Shown here: positions 1,187 to 56,065 of the stretch, piece by piece
How the letters are laid out: every line of letters starts with the position of its first letter
Position numbering within the stretch: position 1 is the first letter of the stretch
Source: Deltaproteobacteria bacterium
Lineage (GTDB): Bacteria > Myxococcota > Kuafuiibacteriia > Kuafuiibacteriales > Kuafuiibacteriaceae
Assembly: GCA_040218735.1 (NCBI GenBank)
Contig: JAVJQW010000057.1
Location: forward strand, 500,005-564,004
Direction of reading: 5' to 3'
DNA: 64,000 nucleotides
The notes under the pieces: model-generated
What the model was told of the DNA's origin: nothing
Databases searched by the model: none
What the model saw: the letters and a program-made list of their open reading frames with translations, nothing else
Made by a program: the position numbers and the translations under genes

Positions 1187-3130
1187 CTACACCCCCGTGT
1201 GGTCGCTCTCCATCCAGCGACGTTTCTCGAACCCGAAGTAACGAATGCCCTGCAGCAGCGGGAACAGCCACAGGATGAAGAACACGATCATGGCGTGTGA
1301 GCCGATGAAGACGTCGGAGCGCACCGCGAGCGTGAGCGCCGTGGGCTCGCCGCGACCGGTCACCCACTCCGGCTTCACCTCGGCGACGTACGTGCCGCCC
1401 GGGACGCCGCCCACGTAGACCGTTCGCGCATGCCGACCGGACGCGTAGGTTTGGCCGCCGACGTACCCCGAGTAACTCGCGACGTGCACGCCGAACGGGA
1501 TGCGTTTGTTCGACGTCTGCTCGATCAACGTGCCTTCACTGAACACGAAGCCGTTCTTCACGTCCGACGCCATCGTGATCTCGAGCGCGCTCTTGCCGCT
1601 GACCTCGAAGGCCTTGCTCCGCAGCAGCTCGCCCTTTACGCGCCGCGGCTTCTCGTTGCCGCCGCGCGTCTTGGTCGGGAGCTTCCACTGCTCCTGCAGG
1701 ACGACCTGGTTGTCGGAGGTCATCGACATCAGCATCGCCAGCAGCAGCAACAGCCCCGAGAAGACGAGGCCGAAGCGGAACGAAGCCTTCAGCGAAGGCG
1801 CCGCGGGGTTCGGTTGGTTCGGCGCGATGCCGGCGGCGCGCGCGAGCGGGCGCTTCAACCCGAACGCCTCCTCGACGACCTTCTTGTCGAGGTACTCACC
1901 AGCGGACCACGTCACCTCTTCGGGCGTGCGCTCCTCCGACAGGATGTGCGGCGGCGCGACGTAGTCACTCGTGCCGACGCGATCCCCGACCTGCACCTTC
2001 CAGTAGAACTCGCCGCGCAGCGCATCGACGACGGCGGTCGACGAAGAGAAGTGGCGGTACGTGCGATCGTCGAAGCGCGCCTGACGCCCGCGCTCCTGCA
2101 CCGCCCCCGCCGACACCGGGCGCACGAAGGTCCAGTGACCGTCGTTGTCGATCAACCAGTAGTAACCGCCGCGCCGGTCCTCGCGGAGCAGGTACTCCTG
2201 CCACGCGTACTTGATCCCGTCGTACGTGACGCTGCGTTCGAGCAGCCCGTAGATCGTGTAGCGCCCGTGCGAGAACTTGCCGGTGCTCCCCAGCGGGATC
2301 TGCGGATCCTGCCCGTGCTGGCGCGCGGCCGACATCAGGTACAGCTCGCTGCCCTTCGAACAGTCGAGGAGCGAGTCACACGAGCCGCACGTCACGCGCT
2401 GGGCTTCGTCGGGCGCGCGCAGCTCGACGGCAGCGCCACAGTTCGGGCAGTTCATCCCGACGCCGGCGGCGGCCTCGGTGGGCTGGTAGTCGCGAAGGAC
2501 GCTCTTGTCGAAGACGTCGTCGTACTTCAGCTCGGCGCCGAGGAAGATCGACTCCGCCTCACGCGGCGCGGTGCCGTAGTCGATCGTTCCGAAGGTCCCG
2601 TTGGGCCCTTCGACGTCGCAGTAGAAGAACTGGGCGCCCGGCTCGACCGCGAACGGGAGCTCGCCCTCCGCCGACACGAACTTCGCGCGGCGACGCTCGA
2701 CGACGGTCAGCTCGTGTTTGCCGAACTTGAAGTGACTGCCGACGCGCGCCGCGGGGTAGCTCGGCAAGCCGGCTTGCGCCCCGCCGAACGTGAGGTAGAC
2801 CTTCCCCTGAGCTTCGGCGAGCCAGCCCCAACGGCCGTCGTCGAAGGCGGCGTACCACTCGTTCCAGGGACCTGCCCCATAGTTCAGCTGAACGCGCCCG
2901 ACGAGTGTGAAGCCCTTGCTGTGGTAGCGCCCGGAGGTCCCGAGCGCGAGCGGGGAGCCGATATCCGCCAGCGGGGCGACCTGCCCGAGGATCTCGAGCT
3001 CGGTGATGTCGTCGCCCACGCGAGCGACGGCGCTCGAGCAGTAGCTACAGACGGACAGGAGCGATGCTCCCGCCCGGAACTCGACCTGCCCACCGCAGTT
3101 GGGACAGTTGACGACGCGGGCGGCCTTCAC
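1187..3130 (-). CDS. DUF4178 domain protein (two Zn-ribbon plus DUF4178 repeats, C-terminal TMs)
   Basis: CPNCG...CxxC twice, W-x-E-W/Y motifs (WNEWY, WQEYLL), GELPF and GEFYW, C-terminal FEKRRWMESD. Confidence 0.85.
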   Translation of the reverse strand: MKAARVVNCPNCGGQVEFRAGASLLSVCSYCSSAVARVGDDITELEILGQVAPLADIGSPLALGTSGRYHSKGFTLVGRVQLNYGAGPWNEWYAAFDDGRWGWLAEAQGKVYLTFGGAQAGLPSYPAARVGSHFKFGKHELTVVERRRAKFVSAEGELPFAVEPGAQFFYCDVEGPNGTFGTIDYGTAPREAESIFLGAELKYDDVFDKSVLRDYQPTEAAAGVGMNCPNCGAAVELRAPDEAQRVTCGSCDSLLDCSKGSELYLMSAARQHGQDPQIPLGSTGKFSHGRYTIYGLLERSVTYDGIKYAWQEYLLREDRRGGYYWLIDNDGHWTFVRPVSAGAVQERGRQARFDDRTYRHFSSSTAVVDALRGEFYWKVQVGDRVGTSDYVAPPHILSEERTPEEVTWSAGEYLDKKVVEEAFGLKRPLARAAGIAPNQPNPAAPSLKASFRFGLVFSGLLLLLAMLMSMTSDNQVVLQEQWKLPTKTRGGNEKPRRVKGELLRSKAFEVSGKSALEITMASDVKNGFVFSEGTLIEQTSNKRIPFGVHVASYSGYVGGQTYASGRHARTVYVGGVPGGTYVAEVKPEWVTGRGEPTALTLAVRSDVFIGSHAMIVFFILWLFPLLQGIRYFGFEKRRWMESDHTGV

Positions 3131-3190: not shown

Positions 3191-5668
3191 ATGGGGGAGC
3201 CGGTCTTCGCCGGGGCGAGTCGAGTCGAACGCGTCACGGTGTTCTCCGAACATGCGCACGTCACGCGGATCGTCGAGATCGACGTTCCGGCGGGAGAGAC
3301 GACGTACGCGCTCGACGATCTCCCGACGTCGGTCGATCCCGCGACGCTGCGGGTCACGACGTCCGGCGGAGAGATCGTACGCGTCGAGCTGGGGCTCCTC
3401 CCCGATACACACCCCGAGGGCGCCGACTCCACCGCCGATCTCGACGTCGCGATCGAGCGGCTGACCGCGCGCCTCTACGATCTCACCGGGCGCGCCGAAG
3501 GGCTCGCCGCCGAGCTCGAGCTGATCGACGCCGTCGTCCCCGACAAAGCGCGCGCGCCTCAGGGCGCGCTCGCGCCGGAGCGGTTCCTGGAGGGGCTCGA
3601 TGCGCTCGTCGAGCGCCGCCGCGAGACGCTCTACCAGCTCCGTATGGCCGACTACGAGCGGCAGCTCACGGCGGACGAGCTCGACCAGCGCAAGAGTCAG
3701 CGCCGCGACCGCGACAACCCTTCGGCCACGCTCCGCGAGCGCACGCGAACGATGGTCACGGTGCGAAGCGATGAAGCCGTCACGGCTACGCTCGAGCTGA
3801 CCTACGCGATGGGGTGGGCGACGTGGCGTCCGTTCTACGATCTCCGTCTCACACGCGGGCTCCCGACCATCGAGGTCACGCGCTACGCGGAGATCTGGCA
3901 GGAGACCGGGGAGGACTGGACCGACACCGCCGTCCGTACGTCGACGGCCGTCCTCGAAGAGGGCCTCGCGATTCAGCGCGTGCGTCCGTGGGTCCTCGAA
4001 CATCCGACGCCGTCGTCCGGGAAGAACAGACCCCTCCCGAGGAACGCTTCGGTCTTGGAGCCCGCGCTCCTACCGCCACCGATGCCGCAGTCGAGCCCCG
4101 GTTCGAACCCCGGACGGAGTCGGTCGTCGCCGGACTTCCTCGACCACGAAGCGGCGACCGGCGACCTCTCGATCTCCGCGGAGACGCTCGCGCAGTCGCC
4201 GTTCGCTCAGCCGTTGCTCGGGCCCGGCTCGGATCCGACGAGCCACCCGCGCCACGGGAGCAACCCGCGCCCGGACTCGGGGCCCCGCGCACGGCAGTTC
4301 CGTGAGGAGGGGATCTTCTCCGAGATCACCGCGGTGTCCGCACAGGCGGAGACGGGGCCGACGGCGACGCAGCTCGTCGAAGCGCAGCGCACGGGCCGCC
4401 CGTCGCCGCGCGAGGGGACGACGAACATCGGCGTGGTGCAGACACCTTCGCCGGATCATCCGGACTGGGACCGCTTCGAGGCGGAGGCTCCGCCGCGCGA
4501 GAGCAGCGGGGGATTCGACTTCGAGCTGACGGCGAACGAGCGCGCGTCCTTGCCTTCGGGCCACGAGCAGCACCGTCTGTTGTTGGGGCGCGCGAACCTT
4601 CCGTGTGAAGTGCGGTACCTGCTCCGGCCCGCGATCACCGGGCACGCGTTTGCGCGGCTGACGATCACCAACTCGTCGCGGGTGCCCCTCCTCCCCGGGA
4701 ACGCGGCGGTGTTCGACAACGATCGTTACTCCGGCGCGGTGACGCTCGACGCGGCGCCGCCGAAGGCGCGGGTGTCGCTCGACCTCGGCGCGCAGCCACG
4801 CGTGGTCGCGCGCCGAAAGAGCCGAACGTCGATGCGGACGGAAGGGCTCATCACGCGCGAGGACGAGAACGCGAACGAAGTGCTGCTCGACACCGACTTC
4901 CGCCTCTTCTACTGGCTGCTCAACGGCCATGTCGTCGGCGCGCCCGAGCAGCCTCCGCCGCCCGACCCGGCCGCCGTGAAGATGGTCCGTGCCTTCGTCC
5001 AGGCCGGTGCCGATCTTCGCTACAGTCGTGCGGGTCTGATCTCTGGCGATCTCGCGCGCCAGTCGGGGAGCGAAGCCGTCCAGCGAACGCTCGCCGAGTG
5101 CGACGCGTACGTGACGCGGCACTACAAGAGCAGCAGCCGAGACAAGCAGTGGAAATACGTGAAGAGACCACCGAACGTGAAGTCGGTGCTCACCAAGGAG
5201 CTCGCTGGCGATGCACTCGCCAAGAAGACGGTCGCGCTGGTCATGGTGTCGGCGACGGCGACGCTGAAGAGCAAGAGGAACGCCTACCGACCGGAGAACG
5301 CGGCGGACGCCAATCCGAATACCGCTTGGGTGGAGGGCAGCCCTTGGCACGGGCGATGCGAGGGTATCGACCTTCGCGTCGACCAGGCCGCCAAGGCGGC
5401 GAAGCTCATGATCCTGAATGGCTACACGAAGTCCGAGAAGACGTGGAAAGAGAACTCGCGCATCAAGCGCGCGAAGGTCTTCGTGAACGGCGATGTCGTG
5501 GCGTCGGTCGAACTGTTGGACACCCTGGAGCCGCAGACCTTCGCGCTCGGTCGTGATCTCTCGGCCAAGGACGTCATCAAATTTCGGATCGTCGAGGTCT
5601 TCCCGGGGAGCAAGTACAAGGACACGGCGATCAGCGAGCTGCGCCTCGTCGCGAGCGAAGCGGGGTAG
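3191..5668 (+). CDS. DUF4140/DUF4139 (MuiA-like) protein, apparently fused to an unrelated C-terminus ending in a discoidin/NADase-type glycan-binding domain
   Basis: Start MGEPVFAGASRVERVTVFSEHAHVTR; ATWRPFYDLR, WQETGEDW and PLLPGNAAVFD motifs; C-terminus YRPENAADANPNTAWVEG...NGYTKS...NSRIK...YKDTAISEL. Confidence 0.7.
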   Translation: MGEPVFAGASRVERVTVFSEHAHVTRIVEIDVPAGETTYALDDLPTSVDPATLRVTTSGGEIVRVELGLLPDTHPEGADSTADLDVAIERLTARLYDLTGRAEGLAAELELIDAVVPDKARAPQGALAPERFLEGLDALVERRRETLYQLRMADYERQLTADELDQRKSQRRDRDNPSATLRERTRTMVTVRSDEAVTATLELTYAMGWATWRPFYDLRLTRGLPTIEVTRYAEIWQETGEDWTDTAVRTSTAVLEEGLAIQRVRPWVLEHPTPSSGKNRPLPRNASVLEPALLPPPMPQSSPGSNPGRSRSSPDFLDHEAATGDLSISAETLAQSPFAQPLLGPGSDPTSHPRHGSNPRPDSGPRARQFREEGIFSEITAVSAQAETGPTATQLVEAQRTGRPSPREGTTNIGVVQTPSPDHPDWDRFEAEAPPRESSGGFDFELTANERASLPSGHEQHRLLLGRANLPCEVRYLLRPAITGHAFARLTITNSSRVPLLPGNAAVFDNDRYSGAVTLDAAPPKARVSLDLGAQPRVVARRKSRTSMRTEGLITREDENANEVLLDTDFRLFYWLLNGHVVGAPEQPPPPDPAAVKMVRAFVQAGADLRYSRAGLISGDLARQSGSEAVQRTLAECDAYVTRHYKSSSRDKQWKYVKRPPNVKSVLTKELAGDALAKKTVALVMVSATATLKSKRNAYRPENAADANPNTAWVEGSPWHGRCEGIDLRVDQAAKAAKLMILNGYTKSEKTWKENSRIKRAKVFVNGDVVASVELLDTLEPQTFALGRDLSAKDVIKFRIVEVFPGSKYKDTAISELRLVASEAG

Positions 5669-6022: not shown

Positions 6023-6502
6023 ATGTCGAATTCAACGAAGCGCGGCGGGCTGTGGTCCGTCGCTGTCCTGGGGTTCATCGCGGCGTGTGGATCGGTCGAC
6101 GAGCGGCCGGCGTCGGAGGAGGCGCCCCAGACCGCGACGACGGAGCAGGGCATCCTCGGCTCCAACCTCTGCAAGGACGTCGACCTCATCTTCACCAACT
6201 CGCGCGAGCGGGCGAGCGGCAACGTCGCCATTCGCGTCCGTCGCGTGAAGTTCTCCGAGAACGCGAACGGCCCGTGGCGCTCCGAGGACTTCAGTAACCG
6301 GGTCGTCGGTTACGGCGACACGGTGACGGTCGACAACCAAGACCTCGAGAACTCGTACAACGATGATCTCGAGCACTGGCGCATCTACTACAACGTCCTG
6401 CAGCCCAACGGGACTTGGGGCTCCGAGGTGTATCAGCAGGTCACGCACTTCGGCGACTCCACCTGCCGGAACTACCGAGGTTACTCGCTCGTCGTGAACT
6501 AA
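6023..6502 (+). CDS. Secreted lipoprotein of unknown function
   Basis: GGAGAG RBS then ATG; lipobox IAAC; beta-rich mature domain with two Cys. Confidence 0.8.
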   Translation: MSNSTKRGGLWSVAVLGFIAACGSVDERPASEEAPQTATTEQGILGSNLCKDVDLIFTNSRERASGNVAIRVRRVKFSENANGPWRSEDFSNRVVGYGDTVTVDNQDLENSYNDDLEHWRIYYNVLQPNGTWGSEVYQQVTHFGDSTCRNYRGYSLVVN

Positions 6503-6506
6503 CGAC

Positions 6507-7223
6507 TCAGGGTCGCAGCCGAAGCGTGAAGGAACGCGCTTGCCAGCCGTCGCCGGTCTCCTCGCCCAGCACCGCTTGCGGCCTGGGCGCGGCGCCGGGG
6601 CGGGAGACGACGGCGACGAGGCGGACCTCGCCCGTTTGGCCGCGGGCGAGCACACCGGCTTCGCCGACCCACCGAGCCGTGCCCCGCGGCGACACCTCCG
6701 CAACGACCGAGGACGAGACCGGCGCGCCGTCGACGACGACGAACAGCGACGCCCCGACCGGGCCGGACACCTCGACCATCGGTCGCATGACGATCGCGAT
6801 CTCGGTGGGGCCGTCGAGGATCGTGGGAGTCGCCGCGCCGCGCCAGTCCTCGGCGGTCGGCTCATACTCCACCCGGTAGGCCGGCAGCGCGTCGCCGTCG
6901 GGAGGGACCATGAGGAGCAGCACGGCGGCCGCCGCGGCGACGGCGGCGACACCGATCGGCCACGTTCGCGCGCGGCGCAGCGGGCTCGCGGCGTCCAGCG
7001 CGACGCCGACGAGTTTGTCCTCGAAGTCCTTCGAGAGGGGCTCGCACATCTCGAGCGCCGTCCGCAGCGCCGAGTCGTGCACGGCATCTTCGCGCAGCCG
7101 CGCCTCCTCGTCCGCGCTCAGCGTTCCGTGGGCGAGGCGCTCGATCCGTGGATCGAGGTCCGCGTCGAGCGCGCTCATCGCCTGCCCGATCGCGCGGAGG
7201 CCGTCGTCGACGCGGTCAGACAC
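6507..7223 (-). CDS. Putative membrane anti-sigma factor (paralog 1)
   Basis: Overlaps the ECF sigma stop; N-terminal helical domain (RLAHGTLSADEEARL), one TM, beta-rich outer domain; homologous to 11504-12256. Confidence 0.75.
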   Translation of the reverse strand: MSDRVDDGLRAIGQAMSALDADLDPRIERLAHGTLSADEEARLREDAVHDSALRTALEMCEPLSKDFEDKLVGVALDAASPLRRARTWPIGVAAVAAAAAVLLLMVPPDGDALPAYRVEYEPTAEDWRGAATPTILDGPTEIAIVMRPMVEVSGPVGASLFVVVDGAPVSSSVVAEVSPRGTARWVGEAGVLARGQTGEVRLVAVVSRPGAAPRPQAVLGEETGDGWQARSFTLRLRP

Positions 7224-7872
7224 GGCCAGGTCCTTCGGCTGCGAGCTCCGCCTCGAGCTCGCGGACCAGCTTCAGGAGTCGATTGCGCCAGGAGTACAGG
7301 GCGGTCGGTGTCGTCCCCTCCTCCTCGGCGACGAGCTGAATCGGCTGCTCGTCGATGTACAGGCGTTGGAAGTACACACGGCCCCGCGGGCTGAGGCGTT
7401 CTTTCAGGCGCTCGGCGATGAGGGCGAGCAGCTCGCGCGACGCCACGTAGTCCTCGTGGCTGGCCGCCGTGCCGCGCATCTCGTCTAGGCGCTCGTCGAG
7501 CGTCGGGTCCTCGGTCCAGGGGTTGCGCTTGCCGGTCCGCATGATCATGCCGACCTCGCGATCGGCGAGGAGGCCGACGAAGCTCGTGAACGACAGGCCG
7601 CGGCGCTCGTCCCACGCGCGGAGCGCCTTCCCCCGCCGCGAGAACAGCGCGGCAAAGACCTCCTGCACCATGTCTTCGACATCATGGCGCAGGTTGCGAC
7701 CGCGTGCCTGCGCCGCGTGGCGCATCAGCGCTCGCGAGACCCGAACCTGAATGGTCGGGGCGATCCGGGCGACGACGGTGCGCATCGCGTCGGCGTCGCC
7801 GTCCAACGCCGATACGAGCCGCGCGCGCAGCTCCTGTGGACCGAGCCGGTCGAGGTCGATACCCGGGGTCAC
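7216..7872 (-). CDS. ECF RNA polymerase sigma-70 family factor (paralog 1)
   Basis: Region 2 DVEDMVQEVFAALF, WDERRGLSFTSFV; region 4 LSPRGRVYFQRLY...ALYSWRNRL; GTG start with GAGGA RBS chosen by eye. Confidence 0.85.
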   Translation of the reverse strand: MTPGIDLDRLGPQELRARLVSALDGDADAMRTVVARIAPTIQVRVSRALMRHAAQARGRNLRHDVEDMVQEVFAALFSRRGKALRAWDERRGLSFTSFVGLLADREVGMIMRTGKRNPWTEDPTLDERLDEMRGTAASHEDYVASRELLALIAERLKERLSPRGRVYFQRLYIDEQPIQLVAEEEGTTPTALYSWRNRLLKLVRELEAELAAEGPGRV

Positions 7873-7975
7873 GACGTCGTTCCTCGAGACTCCGTAACGT
7901 ATCAACAACCGCCCGTCGCGGCGTCCCCTGTGCAATCCCTCCCGAGCTTTCAGTTCTGTTCGCCAGACGATCAGC

Positions 7976-10729
7976 TCATCGCACGACGACGCGGAAGCTG
8001 GCCCAGTCGACCTCGGGACGGTCGACGGACAGCCGGCTCTGCGCCTCGGCGAGCAGCGTGGGGCCATCCCAGACGCCGCGGCGCCGCTGCGCGGCGTACA
8101 GGGCCGTCACGACCACCCGAGCGTCGACGTCGCGCACCGGGCGGACGGACGCGATCACCCAGCGCGCACCCGCCATCAGGAAGGCCTGCGCCAGGCCGAG
8201 GCCGGACACATCCTTGGCCGCGGAAGTCGCCGCCGTCTCGCAGCCCGATAACACCACGTGGTCCGGCACCGACGACAGCGCGAGGATCTCGGCGACGCCG
8301 AGCAGCTCGACGGACGGGTCGCCGAGATGGCTCTCCCAGCCGTCGAGCCCGGCGTAGTGGGCATGCCCCGCGTAGTGCAGCAGCCGAGCGCGGGGCGATC
8401 GCGTCGCCGCTGCGACGGCGCTGCGCGTGGCTTCCGCACCCGAGAGTCGCCGGACGGACCAACCGCCGTCACTCAACGTGCGCTCGACGTGGGCTGCCTC
8501 CTTCGTCGACGTCCGCAGCTTGACGAACGGATCGATGACGATCGCCTCGGCGCCGCGCGGTGTGTCGGAGGACGTTGGCGACTCGACGTCGGCCGGGTAG
8601 GCGACCGGGCGGGAGGCGACCAAAGGCCGCCCGCGCCACGGCAGCGCGTGGAAGTCGACGCGGTTCAGGACGCCGTTCGGGAGCACGTGAACCCTCGCGT
8701 GCCCGTCGAGCACCGCGTCGAAGGGATCGAGGAGCTGGTGAGCCAGCGCGTCCGCCGTCGAACGTTCGACGTCGATCGGTCCGAGGTGACGCGCGATCGA
8801 TCCGGCCGCGGTCGACGCGAACCCCACCCACCCCTGCTCGACGCGGTGGTAGGTCAGCAGGACCACCCCGCGCGGCGGCGGCTCGAGATCTCGATCGGCG
8901 GGCAAGGAGGCGCCGAGCGCGGTGAGCGCATCGTCGATCTGCACGCGCGTCGCCGCCGACCGCCCCTCGCGGCGTTGGATGCGGCGCCGGATGTCGTCGA
9001 CCGGGAGGTCCCAACCGCGATCGTCGGGTCCGTCGTCGACGTGGATGCGACGGTGCTCGGACAGCGCTTCGTACCAGAGTTGACGCGCCTCTTCGGGCGC
9101 GCCGTCGAGGCGCGCCCTCGCGTTCAGCCCGAGCAGCACACGCCTTCGACTGCGTCGCGCCGTGTCCGCGGCGGCCGCGATCTCGTCCTTCTGGATCAGC
9201 AGCTCGATCAACCGCTGGCTGCCGTCCGCGTGCCGGCCGACGAACCCCTCTCGACCACCACCGAGCGGTGCGCGCAGGCTGAGGCGATCGAGGACACGCT
9301 CGCCTTCGCGATAGACCGCGATGGCTTCCTCGATGCGACCCTGTCCTTCGAGGGCACGGCCTCGCCCGACGAGACCGCGGAGGCGGGTCGTCGCATCGCC
9401 GTACCATCGGCCCAGCAGCTCGAGCCGCGCGTACGCGTGCTCGGCCTGTTCATGGTTCGCCTGGGCGAGGGAAAGATCCGCCTGCAAGATCGATTGCAGC
9501 TTTCGTAGCGGAATCGCGGGCTCGGCGAAGGCCGCGCGCGAACGAACGAGGAGATCGCTCGCCGCCTCCAGATCTCCCGCGAGCAGCTCGACGTATCCGA
9601 GCCGCGCGAGGGCGTTCGAACGATGCCGTGGGTTGTCGCAGCGCTCCTCGTACAGCTCGAGGGCCGCGCGCAACGACGCACGTGCCGGCTCGAGCGTTTG
9701 GGTATCGGACAGCCCGGTGGCCAGCCGGCCCAGGATCACCAGCGCCAGCGCACGCCGGCACGTCGGCTGCGTCGGGGTCTCCTCGGCGAGGCGCGCGTAC
9801 AGATCCGCTGCCTCTTCGAACCGCCCGAGGTCGATGAAGGTCTCGACCTGGAGTTCCGCGGCCGCTCGCCAGACCGCTTCGTCACCCATGCGTTCGGCGT
9901 GTTCGAGTGCACGCGCGCCGTAGCGCAGCGCGCGCCGATAGTCGCTGACGCCGACGGCGGCGTAGGCCCGATAGTAGGCGGCGTCCTCGGCGGCCGCCGG
10001 ATAGACGGACGCGCGCGCGTCGACCTCCGCGAGCGTCATACAAACGCGTGCGTAGTCGCCGCGGTTCCTCAGGATGTACGCCAGAGCGAAGCGGTCGTGC
10101 ATCTCGCCCGATACGGATCCCGCGGCCCGGTGTTGGTCGATGCTCCGGGTCAGCCGAACGACCGCCTCGGCGTGGTCACCGCGATCACGTGCCATTCGTC
10201 CGAGGAGCGCATGGGCCTGCGCACGAACGCCTTCGTCAGGATCCTCGGTGAGCGGCAGGAGGATCGCGGCGGCCGCGGCCCGCTCGCCATCGCTCCTCAG
10301 TCTTCGCGCGGCTTCGAGCGCGGGATGGACCTCGTGCCGCTCGAGCCGGAGCGTCCAGCGTTCGGACGAGCCCTGCGGTCCGATGGCCAACGTCGCCGGG
10401 AGGTCCGACGGAGCAACGGGGAGGGACAGCCGAAGGCCACCGGCGGCGGGCGTCGTGTGAAGATCGCGCGGGCGCCCGTCCAGGCTGACGGGCGGAGCCA
10501 CCGCGCCGCCGAGCCAGATGGTGAGCGTCGCACCTGCGGTCAGGAGGCAGCGACCCTCGACCGTGACTTGGTCGCAGCCCTTGAACAACACGCCCGGCCC
10601 GCCGGTCGACGACGCCACGACGCCCGCCGTCACGTCGGTCGCGCCCGTCAGCCGCTCGTGAGCGAGCCACCCACCGACGAGGCAGAACGCGGCGGCGACG
10701 AGACCCCTCAGAGGCCCTCTGGGAAGCAC
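7976..10729 (-). CDS. TPR-CHAT (caspase-like, clan CD) protease with N-terminal signal/TM segment
   Basis: Ala/Arg-rich TPR-like helices; CHAT motifs VLPNGVLNRVDFHALP, LHYAGHA (His), VVLSGCET (Cys), GLAQAFLMAGARWVIAS, WASF. Confidence 0.9.
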   Translation of the reverse strand: MLPRGPLRGLVAAAFCLVGGWLAHERLTGATDVTAGVVASSTGGPGVLFKGCDQVTVEGRCLLTAGATLTIWLGGAVAPPVSLDGRPRDLHTTPAAGGLRLSLPVAPSDLPATLAIGPQGSSERWTLRLERHEVHPALEAARRLRSDGERAAAAAILLPLTEDPDEGVRAQAHALLGRMARDRGDHAEAVVRLTRSIDQHRAAGSVSGEMHDRFALAYILRNRGDYARVCMTLAEVDARASVYPAAAEDAAYYRAYAAVGVSDYRRALRYGARALEHAERMGDEAVWRAAAELQVETFIDLGRFEEAADLYARLAEETPTQPTCRRALALVILGRLATGLSDTQTLEPARASLRAALELYEERCDNPRHRSNALARLGYVELLAGDLEAASDLLVRSRAAFAEPAIPLRKLQSILQADLSLAQANHEQAEHAYARLELLGRWYGDATTRLRGLVGRGRALEGQGRIEEAIAVYREGERVLDRLSLRAPLGGGREGFVGRHADGSQRLIELLIQKDEIAAAADTARRSRRRVLLGLNARARLDGAPEEARQLWYEALSEHRRIHVDDGPDDRGWDLPVDDIRRRIQRREGRSAATRVQIDDALTALGASLPADRDLEPPPRGVVLLTYHRVEQGWVGFASTAAGSIARHLGPIDVERSTADALAHQLLDPFDAVLDGHARVHVLPNGVLNRVDFHALPWRGRPLVASRPVAYPADVESPTSSDTPRGAEAIVIDPFVKLRTSTKEAAHVERTLSDGGWSVRRLSGAEATRSAVAAATRSPRARLLHYAGHAHYAGLDGWESHLGDPSVELLGVAEILALSSVPDHVVLSGCETAATSAAKDVSGLGLAQAFLMAGARWVIASVRPVRDVDARVVVTALYAAQRRRGVWDGPTLLAEAQSRLSVDRPEVDWASFRVVVR

Positions 10730-11382
10730 TGTTGGTCGTCCGCCTCCATCGAGTACCCCTCACAGATCGGATTCGCCGACGCGTGGTTGTACGTCTGAGC
10801 GAGACAAGCGCAGACGTAGGTCACAATGCAATGGGGGCAGGACCCATAACCATCGAAGAGCTGATTGGCGTGTTCGATGTCGCAGCGGAGGAAGCGATCT
10901 CCGGCGACCACCTTCGCTTTGAATGCGTTCGACTCGAGGATGTGTTCGACGGCTTGCCATCCCTCTTCGCCCAGCGTCGTGAAGAACAAGGCGTGCTCGG
11001 CGACGGCTTCGGGATCCGCGAAATCGTGGAACGTCTGCAAGGGCTGTCCTTCGTCGCCGAGGAGGGTGAGTTCCTCGAGCTCGACGGGCTCACCGATATC
11101 CGAAAAATCCTTCACCATGACGAGGATGTCGAATTCGTCATAGTAGATCGTACAGGAGCCCTCCCCTTCCACCGGAGTTTCACCTTCGTCCCCGTCGTTC
11201 CAATCCTCGAGGCCAAAAGGAGGATTGGACACCGCGTCGTGGTCTTCGTAGTCGTCGGACGGGTCCGACGCCTCGGCACTACTCGCCGACGTGACCTCCG
11301 CCGTCTTTGCTGGCGCGCCGCCGTCGCAAGAGACCACACCCACCACCGTGCACATCGCTACGATTCGTTCGATTCGATTCAT
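10708..11382 (-). CDS. Acidic lipoprotein with Cys-rich C-terminus
   Basis: GAAGGAG upstream of ATG; lipobox-like VVSC; C-terminal CPHC...CAC...C...C; overlaps the CHAT start. Confidence 0.75.
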   Translation of the reverse strand: MNRIERIVAMCTVVGVVSCDGGAPAKTAEVTSASSAEASDPSDDYEDHDAVSNPPFGLEDWNDGDEGETPVEGEGSCTIYYDEFDILVMVKDFSDIGEPVELEELTLLGDEGQPLQTFHDFADPEAVAEHALFFTTLGEEGWQAVEHILESNAFKAKVVAGDRFLRCDIEHANQLFDGYGSCPHCIVTYVCACLAQTYNHASANPICEGYSMEADDQQCFPEGL

Positions 11383-11503
11383 CTCTCTACTCCTTCTGAG
11401 ATCGTGTCACGTCCTCGGTCCGCATTGATAACTATGATGGGAGGACGACACTTCTTGCGCGGCGCCGATCAGGAAAACTCGCCGGGTCGCGACGCTCGTC
11501 AGG

Positions 11504-12256
11504 TCATCGATCGTCGACGACGACGACGACGCGCGCGGCTTCCCAACCGTCCCCGGTCGCACGAGGTGTGCGGGCCGTCAGCCACGCGGCCAGCGCCTCT
11601 TCTCGCGGCGCCTCGCCGGGTCGATGCACGACGAGCACGAGCACCGCTTCGTCGGTTTCGACTTCGACCAGCCGTCCGACCGAACCGACGAATCTCGCGG
11701 CGCCCGTCGGCGAGACCTCGAGTCGACCTTCGACGGGATGTAGCCGACCGTCACGCACCGCATACACACGCGCCTCGACGGTACTCGACACGCGCGTCGC
11801 CGGCCGCAGGACGACTTCGAGTGGCGCATCGGGCGCAAGCCTTCCTGCAGACCGTGCAATCGCGTCCCCGCGGTAGGTGTCATCGCCCACGTGGACCTCG
11901 ACCTCGTACGCGGGCAGCGGCGACGTTCGGAGGACGAAGGGCAGGACGGCCGCCGCGGTCGCCAGGACCGCGACCGCGAGCCACGGTCCGCGAATCACGG
12001 GCGCCCGTATCGGCGAGGGCGCATCGGCGAGGGCGTCCCGCGCGATGTCGTCCAACCGGTCGACGTCCGCGGTGGAGAGCGGCTGGTAGGCGACGAGGCG
12101 ACGAGCGAGCTCCGGATCGCGCTCCGCCTCGCGCTCGAGCTCGAGACGCTCGGCCGCCGAGGACGTCCCATCGGCGAGCGCCTCGAGCCGGGGGTCGACG
12201 TCGTCCTCGGCATCCATCGACGAGGCGATACGGTCAAGGAGGCGATCGTCAGCCAA
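11504..12256 (-). CDS. Putative membrane anti-sigma factor (paralog 2)
   Basis: Overlaps the sigma stop; same architecture and motifs as paralog 1 (LPAY, RG, EVSPxG, RPG, GDGW). Confidence 0.75.
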   Translation of the reverse strand: MADDRLLDRIASSMDAEDDVDPRLEALADGTSSAAERLELEREAERDPELARRLVAYQPLSTADVDRLDDIARDALADAPSPIRAPVIRGPWLAVAVLATAAAVLPFVLRTSPLPAYEVEVHVGDDTYRGDAIARSAGRLAPDAPLEVVLRPATRVSSTVEARVYAVRDGRLHPVEGRLEVSPTGAARFVGSVGRLVEVETDEAVLVLVVHRPGEAPREEALAAWLTARTPRATGDGWEAARVVVVVDDR

Positions 12257-12872
12257 CGCGTTCCTCCTCGTGATCGAGCTCCACCGCGACGTCGGCGACC
12301 ATTCGCCGCAACCTCGAACGCCACACGTAGATGGCCCCCGGCGTGGTACGGGCGCGTTCCGCGATGCGGTCGACCGGCTGCTGCTCGATGTACAGCCATC
12401 GGAAGTACTGCATGCCGAGCGGGCTGAGTCGTTCGCGCAAGCGTTCGGCGAGGACCGCGATCAGGTTCCGTGACTCGAGCCGTGCTTCGACCGCGCGCAG
12501 GTCGGGGACGTCCGCGAACACTTCGTCGTCGGCGAGCGTCGGATCCTCGGTCCACGGGTTGCGCTTCGCGGACCGGAGCAACGACAGGGCTTCCCTCTCG
12601 GCGACGAGACCCACGAAGTTCTCGAACGACAGACCTCGGGCGGGGTCCCAGCTCCTCAGGACGCGAGCGTCGGACGCAAAACACGATGCGAAGACGTCCT
12701 GGACGACGTCCTCCACGACCTGCCGCAGGTCGCGCGCCTGCGCCGCCGGACGCTTCCGCGCGACGATGCCCGCGACGCGCCTGTGGACGATCGGCGCCAT
12801 CGACTCGACGAGACGGCGTCGCATCCCGGCGTCGCCGGCCAGCGCGTCCGCGACCGTCTCGCGGTCCGTCAT
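12249..12872 (-). CDS. ECF RNA polymerase sigma-70 family factor (paralog 2)
   Basis: VEDVVQDVFASCF, WDPARGLSFENFVGL, RNPWTEDPTL shared with paralog 1, AIYVWRSRL. Confidence 0.85.
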   Translation of the reverse strand: MTDRETVADALAGDAGMRRRLVESMAPIVHRRVAGIVARKRPAAQARDLRQVVEDVVQDVFASCFASDARVLRSWDPARGLSFENFVGLVAEREALSLLRSAKRNPWTEDPTLADDEVFADVPDLRAVEARLESRNLIAVLAERLRERLSPLGMQYFRWLYIEQQPVDRIAERARTTPGAIYVWRSRLRRMVADVAVELDHEEERVG

Positions 12873-13004
12873 GCGTCGGGCGGCGTCCGGACGGCGGCGC
12901 GCCTGCGCTCGCACCGGCCGAGACACCGGACGCACCATTGTCGAATCGACCACTCCGAGCTCCTCGGACCGCGCCCCCACGGGGGACATCGGCGCTTGAT
13001 TCGA

Positions 13005-13033
13005 ACTTCTACGCGACCCCCTCCGGATCTTAC
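13005..13033 (-). promoter_or_regulatory. Putative ECF (autoregulatory) promoter GTAAGA-N17-AGAAGT
   Basis: 12-mer TCTGTAAGATCC is identical to the one at 14912-14923; upstream of sigma paralog 2. Confidence 0.5.
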
Positions 13034-13073
13034 AGAGCGCGTGTCGAATGGGACGAATCCCACCGTCGCGGCC

Positions 13074-14792
13074 TCAACAGGGGCCCAAGACCTCGATCTT
13101 CACGTCGTCGATGCGGAAGTGCGTGCTGTCGCCCGCCGCGACGAACTTGAGCACGCGGAAGTCGCCACCGGTCTGCCAGAAGGCCGCGCCCGTCGCGACC
13201 GGAACGCCGTCGACGGTGAAGTCATAGGTTTCGGCGCTCATATCGAGGACGACCTCGAAATCCTGCCAGACGCCCGCCGCGTAGTTCGGTCCCAGGTTGG
13301 TCGAAGTGCCCGTGTGGTAAATGAGCTGCCCGCCGACGGAATAGGTGATGAGGAAGAAATTCTTGTACGTGTTCGATTGACTCGAGACGTTGAACCCGAA
13401 CTTGTCGGTCTGCTCCGCAACCGAACGCCACGTCACGCGAATCTTCGCCGTCCCGAGGGAGGAACAGCTGGCGGCGAAGGCGTCGATACGCGGCCACGAT
13501 CCCGGGGCCGAAGCGCGATTGAATCGTACGTTCTGCGTAACGTTTCCGCCGTAGCTGGTGTCGACGAGGATGGACTGCGTTGGATCCGACGGGTGCGTCG
13601 CGAACACCCCCAGCGAGTCGCCGACGGGTGCCCCGGCCGGACTCGCGAGCGGGGCCATTCCCACGGTGTCGGCTTCGAAGTCGCTGTTGAAGACCACCGT
13701 TGCGCTCGCGCTCGGCTGCAGCAGTACACTGACGTCATCGTCGAGGAAGTTGGCGACGGCGATGTCCGTAGCGAGGTCGCCATCGAAGTCGCCCTGGGCG
13801 ATCGAGTCCGGAGCGTCACCGACGGCGATTCTCGGCGAAGCGTTGAAGGTCGCGCCCGTACCGATGAAGATCGACAGGTCGTCATCGAAGTTGTTGGCCA
13901 CGACGATGTCGGCAAATCCGTCGTTGTTGATGTCAGCCGCGACCGCGACGTTCGGGTTGTTGCCGACCGGAAACTTGGTTGGGGCCTGGAAGGTTCCGTT
14001 GCCGTTGCCCAGGTGGACGCCGACCTCCGAGTTCGCGTTGTCGAGCGACAGTAGGTCGAGCAGACCATCACCATCGAAGTCGGAGAGGTCGATGGACCGG
14101 TCACCACTGTCGGCCGCTGTGACCGGGGCAGCAAACGTGAGGGGGCCGGTGGCCAGACTGACGGTGATGTCGAAGCGCTCCCGCCACAGCAGGTCGGTCA
14201 GGCCGTCCTGGTCGACGTCTGCGGCGACGAGCACGCGAACGCCATCGATGGTGTTGAACACCGTTGGCGCTCCAAGGGCCCCGGTGCCCAGGTTCGGGTG
14301 GATCTCGATCGCGCCGCTGAGGAGGTTGAGTCCGACCGCGACGTCGAGCGTGCCGTCCTGGTCGAAGTCGGCCAATGCAATCGACGTCGGCATCATCGTC
14401 ACGGCGGTCACCGTGGGGGCACCGAACGCCCCTGCGCCGTTGTTGAGCATGACGCCGAACTGCCTGCCGAAGTTGCTGGCGACGACGGCATCGAGATCCC
14501 CGTCCCCGTCCATGTCGCCGAGCGCGATGGCGGTTGGGTCGTTGAAGACCGCGAAGTGAACGGCGGGCGCCATGTTGCCACTTCCATCCGAGAGCAGGAC
14601 GCTCAAGTCGTTCGTGGCTCGGTTCACGGTGACGAGGTCGATGTCGCCGTCGCCGTCCAGGTCACCGGCCTGCACTTGGTTCGGAGCGCCGCCGACGGGG
14701 AAGTCGACGGGCGGATTCAGCTGGGCCCGAACGGGTTTGGTGGGAATGAGGATGGCCAACGGTAGGGCGGCCATGAGGATGTAATTTCGCAT
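13074..14792 (-). CDS. Secreted FG-GAP/VCBS repeat (beta-propeller) protein with C-terminal beta-sandwich domain
   Basis: Signal peptide; seven GDxDGDGxxD-type repeats. Confidence 0.9.
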   Translation of the reverse strand: MRNYILMAALPLAILIPTKPVRAQLNPPVDFPVGGAPNQVQAGDLDGDGDIDLVTVNRATNDLSVLLSDGSGNMAPAVHFAVFNDPTAIALGDMDGDGDLDAVVASNFGRQFGVMLNNGAGAFGAPTVTAVTMMPTSIALADFDQDGTLDVAVGLNLLSGAIEIHPNLGTGALGAPTVFNTIDGVRVLVAADVDQDGLTDLLWRERFDITVSLATGPLTFAAPVTAADSGDRSIDLSDFDGDGLLDLLSLDNANSEVGVHLGNGNGTFQAPTKFPVGNNPNVAVAADINNDGFADIVVANNFDDDLSIFIGTGATFNASPRIAVGDAPDSIAQGDFDGDLATDIAVANFLDDDVSVLLQPSASATVVFNSDFEADTVGMAPLASPAGAPVGDSLGVFATHPSDPTQSILVDTSYGGNVTQNVRFNRASAPGSWPRIDAFAASCSSLGTAKIRVTWRSVAEQTDKFGFNVSSQSNTYKNFFLITYSVGGQLIYHTGTSTNLGPNYAAGVWQDFEVVLDMSAETYDFTVDGVPVATGAAFWQTGGDFRVLKFVAAGDSTHFRIDDVKIEVLGPC

Positions 14793-14891
14793 CTTATCCC
14801 TTCAGAAGGTCGACAGGAGAGTCCACGGAGCTGCACGGCGGTTCGTCGTCCAGGACGAGCCTGGACGTTTCGAGTGGCCGGTCGACTTGGA

Positions 14892-14920
14892 TATTCGCGC
14901 TGGGCCCTTGTGGATCTTAC
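14892..14920 (-). promoter_or_regulatory. Putative ECF-sigma promoter GTAAGA-N17-CGAATA
   Basis: Matches the motif at 5933-5961; about 100 nt upstream of the FG-GAP gene. Confidence 0.55.
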
Positions 14921-15130
14921 AGACGCCCGTGGTCCGCTTCTCGATAGCAGCACGATGCGAACCGTGCGGCCCCTCACCCCGCGGCCTTCGAGCTGAGCGG
15001 CAACCGGTGGGTCGGCATGGATCCCGACCGAGGGCGTGCCGTGCCCTCTGGGGATCACTCAGCGAGCGGCAACTCGAGTTGGCGGTTCAGGGAGCCAGAG
15101 GCGGTCGAGCAACGTAGCGCGCGTCGTCGT

Positions 15131-31913: not shown

Positions 31914-33097
31914 GTCGGCGCGCGTTTCACGATTCGATCTCCGCGAACGAAGACGTACTGCGCGAAGTGCTCCGCGAGCTCACCCGCCTTCGCGTGGCGA
32001 AAGAAGATTGGATCGCCGAGCGCCACGGTCATCCCCGCCGGCAGACGCAGCGGCGTCTGCACCTCCCCCGCGCCCTCGAGATCGAACAGCTCGAGCCCCG
32101 CCGGTAGGTAGGGTCGCGGCAACCGATCGCGCCCCGCCTCGCCGGACGCGACGTACCCACCGCCGTGACAGGTCACCACGCCCGGCGCCGGGCGTCGCAC
32201 CGCCTGCACCGCGAAGAACACCGCGGGCACCAGATCCAACGCGCGGTAGTAGTCGAACAGGTGACTGTCGAGGAAGCCGGAGCCCGCGGTGACCTCCGTC
32301 AGCGCGTCCTCGGCGCTCGCCCAGTGCACACTCCCCGACCCACCACCGTTGAACATCGCGAGCTCGAACCCGTCCGCGCGGAGCACCTCGGCGATGCGCG
32401 CGCGCAGCCGCTCGACGGGGCCGCGGCTCAGCTTCTTGATCCCGCGCTTCGGGAGGTTGAGCAGGCGGCCGAAGGGGCTGTCGTCCGTCATGCCCGCGAT
32501 CTGCGCCTCGTAGCCCATCACGCCGTACAGCCGCACGCCCGCCGTGTCGCGGATGCGCCGCGCGAGCGCGAGCACCGCGTCGACGTCGGCGATCGGGCTG
32601 CGTCGCACGCCGAGGTGCACCTGGTCGCCGAGCCACCGCAGCGACATGTCGACGTCGATCACCACGGGGATCTCGACGCCGCGCTCCGCGCCCGCCGGAC
32701 CGAGCACGGCGAGGTGCTCCGCGTCGTCGACCGCGATCGAGACGGTGTTCGTCGCGGCGAGCGAGGCTAGAGTCTCGGCGTCACGCAGCGACGCGGACGG
32801 GTACGCGACGAAGACGTCGTCGAACCCGGACGCCACGAGGTGCTTGGCCTCGTCGACCTTGAAGCTCATGACGCCGCGGAACACGGCCGCGTCGAGCGCC
32901 ATGATGTGTCGCAACAGCTCCACGCACCGCACGGACTTCGAGGCGATCCGCAGCGTCTTGTTCGCGGCGCGCACCGGTCCGAGGAGCCGTTCGACGTTGG
33001 CGTCGACGGCGTCGAGGTCGACGACCGCGACGGGCAACGATTCACCCGCCACGGCCCCCGTGAGTCGTTCGTAGTCCTCCTCGGGGCTCAGAGACAC
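31883..33097 (-). CDS. PLP-dependent amino acid aldolase/deaminase (alanine racemase-like fold, DSD1 family)
   Basis: VVDLDAVDAN, LRIASKSVRC, GVMGYEAQIAG, NGGGSGS, EVTAGSG, GAGEVQTP, FRHAKAGE. Confidence 0.88.
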   Translation of the reverse strand: MSLSPEEDYERLTGAVAGESLPVAVVDLDAVDANVERLLGPVRAANKTLRIASKSVRCVELLRHIMALDAAVFRGVMSFKVDEAKHLVASGFDDVFVAYPSASLRDAETLASLAATNTVSIAVDDAEHLAVLGPAGAERGVEIPVVIDVDMSLRWLGDQVHLGVRRSPIADVDAVLALARRIRDTAGVRLYGVMGYEAQIAGMTDDSPFGRLLNLPKRGIKKLSRGPVERLRARIAEVLRADGFELAMFNGGGSGSVHWASAEDALTEVTAGSGFLDSHLFDYYRALDLVPAVFFAVQAVRRPAPGVVTCHGGGYVASGEAGRDRLPRPYLPAGLELFDLEGAGEVQTPLRLPAGMTVALGDPIFFRHAKAGELAEHFAQYVFVRGDRIVKRAPTYRGEGCVFL

Positions 33098-51813: not shown

Positions 51814-51952
51814 CGACGCGGATCAGCGCACATCGGACCCACGTCGCCGGGGCCCGACCCCGGCGTAATGTATCGGCGGGTCAACTTCCTGAAAAGACCG
51901 GCGAACGGCGCGTTGCGCGGGCCGCAAACGTCGAAGATAATTCGGGTCTCTC

Positions 51953-54205
<2,253 letters not shown>

Positions 54206-55928: not shown

Positions 55929-56065
55929 CAAAGTCAGTCTCCGTTTCAAGAAATAGGTTTGGAACGCAAGCGCAGACTGTATGCAGACAAAACGGACGAA
56001 AGTGCAACGAGGGACCGCAATTCGGGGTGCGAACCTTGGGCCCCTACGCCCGGTTGGCCGCGCGG

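Follow-up and report, generated by a model that had tools for sequence, protein, structure and literature searches.

The locus analyzed here represents a single copy of a cassette that is widespread and already catalogued and that combines a membrane anti-sigma factor with a caspase-like protease predicted to be exported, and the system that it encodes is a split relative of the DdvS/DdvA pair of Myxococcus. Peculiar to this copy are the two sigma/anti-sigma pairs around one CHAT gene, the absence of the subtilase, and a 12-base element occurring twice. With moderate confidence, we suggest that the locus is a modular trans-envelope switch made of an ECF-type sigma factor, a single-pass anti-sigma factor, and a separate, exported TPR-CHAT protein, in which CHAT would clip the anti-sigma.

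In the window, i.e., the whole stretch of 64,000 nucleotides under analysis, the genes of the locus were chosen by third-position G+C content and translation, which bore out the gene set and positions given in a preliminary description and placed the FG-GAP protein, sigma B, anti-sigma B, a lipoprotein, the TPR-CHAT protein, sigma A, and anti-sigma A on a single strand, the minus strand (Table 1). The start of sigma A is uncertain, with a GTG at 7872 and a reading frame open to 8067. The locus ends with a lipoprotein gene in convergent orientation, whose product has no Pfam family and, in a phmmer search of its own genome, matched itself alone; it is an orphan, and its tie to the cassette is uncertain. 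The earlier statement that there are no Cas genes in the window also held, since the Pfam scan of the 34 other ORFs of the window found no cas or CBASS families, and PADLOC, run on 12 proteins of the locus, returned just three matches, weak and sub-significant.

Table 1. Features of the sigma/anti-sigma/TPR-CHAT locus, in positions of the window
Feature	Position	Strand	Description
Convergent lipoprotein	6023..6502	+	159 aa, N-terminal lipobox LGFIAAC; third-position G+C 0.89
Anti-sigma A	6507..7223	-	238 aa, one hydrophobic segment; family profile matches RslA
Sigma A	7216..7872	-	Divergent ECF-type by profile; RNPWTEDPT linker motif
TPR-CHAT	7976..10729	-	917 aa, predicted to be exported; PF12770, E 1.6e-24
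Orphan lipoprotein	10708..11382	-	224 aa, acidic, Cys-rich; third-position G+C 0.74
Anti-sigma B	11504..12256	-	250 aa, architecture as anti-sigma A
Sigma B	12249..12872	-	47% identity to sigma A; ORF open to 12989
12-base element TCTGTAAGATCC, copy 1	13025..13036	-	Between FG-GAP stop and sigma B start
FG-GAP/VCBS repeat protein	13074..14792	-	572 aa, signal peptide, secreted; PF13517
12-base element TCTGTAAGATCC, copy 2	14912..14923	-	120 nt upstream of FG-GAP start codon

The TPR-CHAT protein comprises a hydrophobic helix (residues 8 to 27, nt 10649 to 10708), a beta-sandwich (47 to 131), a TPR superhelix (136 to 607), and the CHAT domain (622 to 916), and its AlphaFold model reached a pLDDT of 86 and a pTM of 0.85. 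The His/Cys dyad, previously described as intact, corresponds to His789 (nt 8363 to 8365) and Cys830 (nt 8240 to 8242); since none of the 17 aligned homologues departs from either residue and both align, in the 11-paralogue profile, with H862 and C907 of DdvA, the CHAT active site is under selection. As judged by profile and model, DdvA is the nearest solved relative of the window CHAT, with an identity of 16 to 17%. In particular, the profile comparison gave an E value of 3.5e-8 for DdvA (8rot_B) versus about 2e-3 for the craspase CHAT, and the best Foldseek matches were again DdvA (8rw5, 5.4e-14; 8rot_A, 1.2e-13), with separase and Csx29 (8eey_B, E 5.5e-12) behind. A hydrophobic segment is found at the N terminus of all 16 split homologues and ends in a lipobox in 10 of them, the helix of the window protein being without one, while a single strong transmembrane (TM) segment precedes the CHAT part in each of three fused proteins. 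These features support the preliminary proposal of an exported CHAT, and we infer that the protein is probably both exported and membrane tethered.

Both sigma factors contain the RNPWTEDPT motif. Their TIGR02937 scores (37.9 and 34.4 bits) lie under the 42.9-bit cutoff, and single sigma sequences scored below 24 with PF04542, i.e., under the curated cutoff. The 11-paralogue sigma profile matched the solved ECF sigma factor 9isn_F (E 1e-11, profile positions 15 to 201 of 208), in agreement with the ECF (group 4) type, which is defined by sigma-2 and sigma-4 regions only, in about 200 aa. On profile evidence, sigmas A and B are thus a divergent ECF branch. Compared with sigma B, the sigma factor of locus L001 is the nearer relative of sigma A (55% identity), which indicates that the two pairs are not a recent tandem duplication.

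In both pairs, the stop of the sigma gene overlaps the start of its own anti-sigma gene by 8 nt, and each anti-sigma, the two being 38 to 40% identical, has one hydrophobic segment. Anti-sigma A presents a helical anti-sigma-like N-terminal domain, a TM segment at about residues 85 to 113 (nt 6885 to 6971), and a periplasmic beta-sandwich (116 to 236); the anti-sigma model places helices at residues 2 to 79, followed by the TM helix and the beta-sandwich. Pro114 and Tyr116 (LPxY) and Arg128 of anti-sigma A are invariant, and the invariant ectodomain residues are retained in both anti-sigmas of the window. By their own sequences these proteins reached no curated family; the family profile matched RslA (3hug_B, E 7.9e-5) and also ChrR (E 3.5e-3), in both cases at the anti-sigma domain. 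The HxxxCxxC zinc motif of ZAS proteins is absent from anti-sigmas A and B and occurs at the aligned position in the paralogues of loci L007 to L010 and L013, the last of which matches Pfam zf-HC2 (26.9 bits versus a cutoff of 22.2 bits). The profile matches and the zinc motif of some paralogues suggest that the TM proteins of the preliminary description are indeed anti-sigma homologues, and the predicted helical domain and single TM helix, with a sigma gene adjacent, point to class I (ASD) transmembrane anti-sigmas.

A chance association can be excluded, because the same gene set recurs in the own genome and in other genomes. In the own genome (11.6 Mb), sigma, anti-sigma, and TPR-CHAT are encoded separately, within 15 kb, at 11 loci; among 19 foreign loci, which were found through the sigma (some of the records are titled Acidobacteriota), CHAT lies near the sigma in 13, and sigma, anti-sigma, CHAT, and S8 occur together in 10. 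The gene-neighborhood survey proposed earlier thus finds the linkage conserved within and between genomes. Anti-sigma and CHAT are fused in one frame at L011 of the own genome and at L017 and L021 among the foreign loci, and complete cassettes show both the order sigma-antisigma-CHAT and the order CHAT-sigma-antisigma. Contig C14 (54 kb) carries an orphan sigma/anti-sigma pair and no CHAT, and C52 and C17:38629 hold CHAT genes of the family that have no pair. Two family sigmas beside one CHAT occur in none of the 10 other own-genome loci and in none of the 19 foreign loci. The sigma, anti-sigma, and CHAT trees share two well-supported groupings, namely, the pair L004 and L006 and the clade L007 to L009, which L010 joins in both of the trees where it is represented. 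They leave undecided which pair partners the window CHAT, whose nearest paralogue is located at L013, where no family sigma is adjacent.

Of the 11 split loci, 9 contain a dedicated S8 subtilase, and the S8 family has exactly nine strong members in the own genome, all inside these loci and none elsewhere. Locus L005 holds a trypsin-like protease in the corresponding place, and the window locus is the sole one of these 11 without a second protease: no S8 gene was found near it on the contig, and no S8 remnant in the lipoprotein region. A simple motif search recognized the Ser motif in nine of nine subtilases and the Asp and His motifs in two or three, so some subtilases may be inactive. The second protease of the usual cassette, overlooked in the preliminary description, could equally be the site-1 enzyme. 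Other cassettes have as neighbors subtilases, an astacin-FG-GAP protein, an FG-GAP-hydrolase, and an RHS protein.

The orphan lipoprotein gene adjoins the CHAT gene where several paralogous loci hold a subtilase gene, and it shares 22 nt at its 3' end with the start of CHAT. Family-profile searches assigned its product to no family, and no counterpart turned up in the other genomes of the family, the 19 genomes searched giving a single further match, which was weak (E 7.1e-4) and lay in an unrelated 1304-aa frame. The FG-GAP protein matched PF13517 (E 2.8e-38) and PF01839 (E 1.2e-18), three paralogous cassettes are also flanked by FG-GAP proteins, and its gene is probably an output gene. The exact TCTGTAAGATCC sequence has only two copies in the 11.6-Mb genome, upstream of the FG-GAP gene and of sigma B. 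The paralogues showed no promoter motif in common, and instead of serving as a promoter, the 12-mer may act as an operator or be left over from a duplication.

The comparison with DdvS/DdvA drew on PMC6061681, PMC11506125, and PDB entries 8rot, 8rw5, and 8rlz. In both systems, an ECF sigma gene adjoins a single-pass anti-sigma, and the TPR-CHAT part, with a conserved His-Cys dyad, is periplasmic (by predicted export for the window). However, anti-sigma, TM helix, and TPR-CHAT form one polypeptide in DdvA and are encoded by separate genes in the window, where anti-sigma and CHAT each have their own beta-sandwich, while the TM-to-TPR region of DdvA is described as helical. An arrow-shaped dimer, in which the active site faces the linker of the partner, is a DdvA-type feature. 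Different from DdvA, the window anti-sigmas lack zinc ligands, and two sigma/anti-sigma pairs are present. The DdvS/DdvA regulon controls a neighboring CBASS/CRISPR-Cas island, whereas Pfam and PADLOC found no such genes in the window; in the excerpted data (Table S7), the link to a defense island is optional among DdvA-like pairs. The authors of PMC11506125 proposed that CHAT is the site-1 protease, followed by RseP; the same paper reports that the H862A and C907A variants resembled the wild type in unstimulated cells and that DdvA proteolysis was not triggered by the single phage tried, so the protease role of DdvA is itself putative. By analogy, CHAT as an anti-sigma site-1 protease is plausible, and for DdvA it is already in print.

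Regulated intramembrane proteolysis of anti-sigmas is classically exemplified by RseA, on which DegS and RseP act, and some anti-sigmas cleave themselves (both cases are also summarized in PMC11506125). The likeness lies in the single-pass anti-sigma, the bulky ectodomain to be removed, and the site-2 proteases available, Peptidase_M50 genes being present in the own genome (best, a 580-aa frame, E 5.3e-65); however, the candidate site-1 enzyme of the window is a cassette-encoded caspase-family protein and not a PDZ serine protease. The type III-E craspase, which is cytoplasmic and RNA guided, combines Cas7-11 (gRAMP) with the TPR-CHAT protein Csx29, Csx30, Csx31, and a sigma factor. The preliminary analogy with it stands insofar as the fold is related (Csx29, 8eey_B) and a TPR-CHAT protease is tied to sigma control, but the relationship is remote, DdvA is nearer, and, different from the cytoplasmic craspase, the window CHAT has a predicted export signal, the 64-kb window contains no cas genes by Pfam and PADLOC, and the partner is a class-I-like membrane anti-sigma instead of Csx30. 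A further relative is the ECF54-type gene context, which is attributed to Huang et al. 2015. This context comprises a sigma factor, a carboxypeptidase-regulatory-like domain protein, a subtilase, and a CHAT-TPR protein in Actinobacteria (PMC8999054; PMC7826278 supplement), its regulation by proteolysis has already been proposed (PMC8999054), and ECF54 is described as confined to Actinobacteria and without a recognizable anti-sigma (PMC7826278 supplement). Compared by gene context, sigma, CHAT-TPR, and subtilase also co-occur in 9 of 11 own paralogous cassettes and 10 of 19 foreign loci; the window family differs by a clear membrane anti-sigma, and the window locus by having no S8 gene near its sigmas.

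It is possible to hypothesize the following sequence of events. Judging from gene coupling and homology, each anti-sigma would hold its own sigma through its cytoplasmic helical domain, while gene fusions and co-divergence suggest that the periplasmic beta-sandwich would meet the membrane-tethered TPR-CHAT. In the periplasm, a signal (probably a protein to which the TPR part binds) would activate the His789/Cys830 site, and the activated CHAT would clip the anti-sigma ectodomain, a step already proposed in print in the case of DdvA. The cleavage would then be completed by a site-2 protease of the RseP type and by cytoplasmic proteases, with release of the sigma, which may transcribe its own operon and the adjacent secreted FG-GAP gene via the shared 12-base element. 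With a single CHAT gene between the two pairs, at least one pair, and perhaps both, would answer to CHAT. As no second protease is present, the window locus may work differently or be incomplete.

The TPR-CHAT protein could instead be a sensor or scaffold, or cleave another target, such as the FG-GAP protein, the lipoprotein, or a subtilase zymogen. In that case, S8 would clip the anti-sigma in the usual cassette, and a housekeeping periplasmic protease would do so at the window locus. The restriction of S8 to the split loci and its presence in 10 of 19 foreign ones, the trypsin-like protease of L005, the coupling of CHAT with a subtilase in descriptions of actinobacterial ECF54 (PMC8999054; PMC7826278 supplement), and the 22-nt overlap of the lipoprotein gene with CHAT all speak for this view; we nevertheless hold it to be rather unlikely, as the window locus keeps an intact and conserved dyad without any second protease, and the simple search recognized Asp/His motifs in so few subtilases. 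Even less credence can be given to the view that CHAT, like the subtilases and FG-GAP proteins, is a secreted hydrolase output (serving, e.g., feeding or predation) that is not involved in signaling. Although the neighbors are mostly secreted hydrolase-like proteins, anti-sigma and TPR-CHAT form one polypeptide at three loci and likewise in DdvA (PMC11506125), CHAT co-diverges with sigma and anti-sigma, and it is predicted to be membrane or lipid anchored and not freely secreted.

A further alternative is that CHAT is wired to a single pair, the other being an independent orphan pair alongside, so that the switch would not be branched into two outputs; we consider this a serious possibility, only just short of an even chance. 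The orphan pair and the pairless CHATs of the own genome, the greater similarity of sigma A to the L001 sigma than to sigma B, and the lack of two family sigmas per CHAT at every other locus are consistent with it, whereas both gene orders occur in complete cassettes, so that either pair could partner CHAT, and both anti-sigmas keep the invariant ectodomain residues. A bolder proposal, which we regard as improbable, is that one exported caspase-like protease serves both sigma/anti-sigma pairs, with the orphan lipoprotein replacing the subtilase as a partner or securin-like pseudosubstrate and the parts possibly exchangeable in trans. If true, two transcription programs would branch off from one and the same periplasmic signal, and this genome, with its 11 split and at least one fused cassette and its orphan CHATs and pairs, might hold a combinatorial network of protease-gated sigma switches.

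Since the G+C content of the window is about 69%, the genes were picked by third-position G+C and translation. The resulting row, annotated with Pfam and profile searches, bore out the preliminary description in its gene positions, domains, and sigma motif. Taken singly, sigma A and sigma B score slightly below the curated ECF cutoffs, and a profile built from 11 paralogues aligns with the solved structure of an ECF sigma factor over nearly its full length (E 1e-11).

Features of the sigma/anti-sigma/TPR-CHAT locus (window positions) and of related loci in the source genome (positions preceded by the locus name)
Feature	Position	Strand	Remarks
Secreted FG-GAP repeat protein	13074-14792	-	Pfam FG-GAP_3, E 2.8e-38
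Sigma B	12249-12872	-	ECF-like, RNPWTEDPT present
Anti-sigma B	11504-12256	-	Start overlaps sigma B stop by 8 nt
Orphan lipoprotein	10708-11382	-	
TPR-CHAT protein, 917 aa	7976-10729	-	Pfam CHAT, E 1.6e-24, plus TPR matches
Sigma A	7216-7872	-	ECF-like, RNPWTEDPT present
Anti-sigma A	6507-7223	-	Start overlaps sigma A stop by 8 nt
Convergent lipoprotein gene	6023-6502	+	
FG-GAP + RHS + SpvB-type secreted protein, 1,848 aa	L007:1-5544	-	
FG-GAP + alpha/beta-hydrolase secreted protein	L004:11950-14100	+	
Astacin + FG-GAP secreted protein	L009:12350-14614	-	
Fused relative, about 1,056 aa	L011:5478-9134	+	Contig C23

The AlphaFold model of the TPR-CHAT protein (pLDDT 86, pTM 0.85) comprises a hydrophobic helix (8 to 27), a disordered linker, a beta-sandwich (47 to 131), a TPR superhelix (136 to 607), and the CHAT domain (622 to 916). 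The His/Cys dyad, previously reported as intact, was confirmed as His789 and Cys830, which are invariant in all 17 homologues and coincide, when the 11-paralogue profile is aligned, with the catalytic residues H862 and C907 of DdvA, the fused TPR-CHAT anti-sigma factor of Myxococcus. DdvA also gives the best profile match (8rot_B, E 3.5e-8, versus about 2e-3 for craspase) and the top fold matches (8rw5, 5.4e-14; 8rot_A, 1.2e-13), with separase and Csx29 ranking lower, at an identity of 16 to 17% to the two DdvA structures. Searches of solved structures with the single CHAT or sigma A sequences returned nothing useful, so that profiles were required for CHAT, sigma, and anti-sigma.

Furthermore, a hydrophobic segment lies at the N terminus of all 16 split homologues, in which anti-sigma and TPR-CHAT are separate genes, and ends in a lipobox in 10 of them; in the window protein, the segment is present but the lipobox is not. 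Each of three fused relatives, which carry both parts in one polypeptide, has a single strong transmembrane segment ahead of the CHAT part. Read from sequence and model together, this putative export signal agrees with the exported protein proposed earlier, and CHAT is most likely located outside the cytoplasm, as in DdvA.

Neither of the window anti-sigmas, used singly, reaches a curated family among Pfam and other curated models. Their family has 14 strong members in the source genome; the N-terminal domain of five aligned paralogues keeps an HxxxCxxC zinc motif, which is lost there in the window proteins, and one zinc-motif paralogue reaches Pfam zf-HC2. Moreover, the family profile matches RslA and ChrR in their anti-sigma domains (E 7.9e-5 and E 3.5e-3, respectively). 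By homology, then, the transmembrane proteins of the window are the anti-sigma factors that they had been taken for. Anti-sigma A, as modeled by AlphaFold (pLDDT 82), consists of a helical bundle (2 to 79), a transmembrane helix, and a confident beta-sandwich (116 to 236). The invariant residues next to the membrane on its outer side are Pro114, Tyr116 (LPxY), and Arg128, the last of these sitting in a low-confidence loop of the model. A fold search with the ectodomain returned generic Ig-like sandwiches alone, none at E ≤1e-3, and thus no specific structural relative. Cofolding of CHAT (46 to 917) with the anti-sigma A ectodomain (114 to 238) gave scores of 0.31 and 0.27, the mark being 0.32, and carries no weight for or against binding.

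The linkage of these genes recurs beyond the window, both within the source genome and in other genomes (neighborhood survey, HMMs). The source genome (11.6 Mb) contains 21 CHAT matches. With HMMs built from the window proteins, and taking as a locus a family sigma, an anti-sigma, and a CHAT gene no more than 15 kb apart, we found 11 split loci, window included. One sigma/anti-sigma pair (contig C14) and two CHAT genes (C52 and C17:38629) are orphans. A lipoprotein-like S8 subtilase of 635 to 784 aa is present in 9 of the 11 split loci, and the S8 HMM finds exactly those nine strong members genome-wide and zero on the window's contig. At a tenth locus, a trypsin-like protease takes the place of S8; the window locus alone among the 11 is devoid of a second protease. 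A simple motif search of the cassette subtilases (loci L001 to L010) recognized the Ser motif in nine of nine and the Asp and His motifs in two to three, and some of them may be pseudo-proteases. In the fused relative L011, which lies directly 3' of a family sigma gene, a single frame contains, in order, the ZAS motif HLRDCRLC, one strong transmembrane segment, a PxY ectodomain, TPR repeats, and CHAT with the dyad; thus, split and fused forms coexist in one genome.

A sigma-seeded scan of other genomes yielded at least 19 loci, which represent a sample. Among the 19 matches listed, sigma, anti-sigma, CHAT, and S8 occur together in 10, 3 of them in records titled Acidobacteriota or Thermoanaerobaculia; CHAT is present without S8 in 3 more, the contig ends after the anti-sigma in 2, and the sigma alone is visible in 4, one of these on a 3.3-kb contig. 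Anti-sigma and CHAT form one frame of about 1,180 aa in two Haliangium-titled records among the same 19. The anti-sigma profile matches 66 of 301 genomes of a phylum sample at E ≤1e-8, 26 over at least 200 of its 257 positions and the others in the N-terminal domain only. In a representative library of 1.84 billion proteins, 438 clusters match the anti-sigma at E ≤1e-30, and the best 150 of the 438 are all 213 to 369 aa long, corresponding to the stand-alone form. An orthologous locus in relatives was considered and rejected: the top CHAT hits from five related genomes are 30 to 36% identical, and none of 19 family genomes contains a real counterpart of the orphan lipoprotein.

In the phylogenetic trees, the clade of cassette loci L007 to L009, to which L010 belongs in both trees where it is represented, is well supported for sigma, anti-sigma, and CHAT, and the pair L004 and L006 recurs in all three. 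It follows from these shared clades that the three genes duplicate and diverge together.

Two family sigmas beside one CHAT have no second case among the source genome loci or the 19 matches listed. Sigma A is 55% identical to the sigma of another locus versus 47% to sigma B, so the two pairs are not a fresh tandem duplication. Both gene orders are found in complete cassettes, and the sigma, anti-sigma, and CHAT trees do not indicate which pair is the partner of CHAT, which may act on one anti-sigma or on both. Third-position G+C is lower in the orphan lipoprotein gene (0.74) than in its neighbors (0.79 to 0.90), and the gene falls in a small G+C dip (0.666 at 10001 to 12000), as would fit an insertion or a gene of younger age. 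Its product has no match above chance in the Atlas, and no decayed subtilase or CHAT was found in its region.

Elsewhere in the window, positions 3191 to 5668 (+) encode a protein of 825 aa that combines DUF4140 and DUF4139 with NADase_transloc (F5/8 type C) at its C terminus; it is concealed by a spurious ORF call of 1,412 aa, which also overlaps a genuine DUF4178 gene at 1187 to 3130 (-). A 983-aa protein of repeated HYDIN/ASH/PapD-like Ig domains lies at 33088 to 36039 (-). A 1,163-aa TPR protein and a PEGA-domain Ser/Thr kinase are encoded divergently (48322 to 54205), followed by a collagen-repeat protein (54276 to 56462).

The best-supported reading of the locus is a five-step protease-gated sigma switch. 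Each anti-sigma would keep its sigma bound in the cytoplasm, and its ectodomain would contact the membrane-tethered TPR-CHAT protein; a putative periplasmic signal would switch on the CHAT dyad; the ectodomain would be cut off, and an M50 site-2 protease, of a kind present in the source genome, would finish the release; and the freed sigma would transcribe its presumed targets. The cut is predicted in the flexible loop of Arg128 or at the juxtamembrane LPxY, and the orphan lipoprotein might activate or inhibit CHAT. As the main rival, the second protease of the cassette would be the true site-1 enzyme and CHAT a sensor or an upstream protease; the window locus, having no such second protease, either offers the cleanest test or is incomplete. 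It could also be supposed that CHAT is a mere output of sigma control, but this is opposed by the anti-sigma-CHAT fusions and by the co-divergence of the genes, which argue that CHAT works with the anti-sigma.

For the output of the protease-gated switch, one copy of the 12-mer TCTGTAAGATCC precedes the FG-GAP start by 120 nt and a second lies in the gap that separates sigma B from the FG-GAP stop, with no other exact copy in the whole genome; the element could represent an operator or the remnant of a duplication. One of the two sigmas probably has the FG-GAP gene as a target. Pfam searches of ten large ORFs selected from those flanking paralogous cassettes detected FG-GAP repeats in three, and the secreted proteins concerned (L007, L004, and L009) may be outputs of those switches. 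At L006, the 13-mer ACCATCAACGGCC (C64:172265 and C64:177509, minus strand; genome-wide count of 4) lies upstream of the cassette sigma and of an adjacent gene for a 664-aa secreted protein, and may parallel the window 12-mer. Apart from these two, a screen for shared 10-mers gave chiefly noise, and no motif common to the upstream regions of the paralogous sigma genes was found by eye. A GG(A)TTCG element near some sites was dropped for inconsistent spacing. Between 5600 and 15200, a scan found no sigma-70-type promoter, and two weak terminator-like hairpins were fewer than in shuffled sequences; neither result carries weight either way.

The locus holds a real and well-conserved cassette, the split counterpart of a system already published. 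DdvS/DdvA of M. xanthus pairs an ECF sigma with a transmembrane anti-sigma bearing a periplasmic TPR-CHAT (PMC11506125, PMC6061681), and its authors proposed that CHAT, once activated by a signal, cleaves the linker in trans as site-1 protease and that RseP acts next; DdvA dyad mutants had no phenotype in the absence of the signal, which these authors describe as unknown (PMC11506125). The word "subtilase" is absent from the available part of the supplement on DdvA-like pairs (PMC11506125). Sigma, subtilase, and CHAT-TPR are catalogued for actinobacterial ECF54, with proteolytic regulation suggested (PMC8999054 and the PMC7826278 supplement); CHAT goes unmentioned in the main text of PMC7826278. 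Literature searches revealed no account of the split form in myxobacteria, the PMC7826278 supplement being covered in its part before the later ECF groups. The principle is not new, the mechanism having been hypothesized in print and the gene context catalogued, and the local peculiarities (second pair, missing subtilase, orphan lipoprotein, and unique 12-mer) leave the overall picture unchanged.

The split form may make it easier to study how a TPR-CHAT domain switches off an anti-sigma, since the protease is encoded apart from its presumed substrate and each can be produced, combined with the other, and altered by mutation on its own. About a dozen diverged copies, fused and split, in one genome provide natural specificity swaps. 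The window locus is the simplest version, with CHAT but no second protease and with a candidate reporter promoter, and would thus be a convenient place to test a bacterial caspase relative as a site-1 protease.
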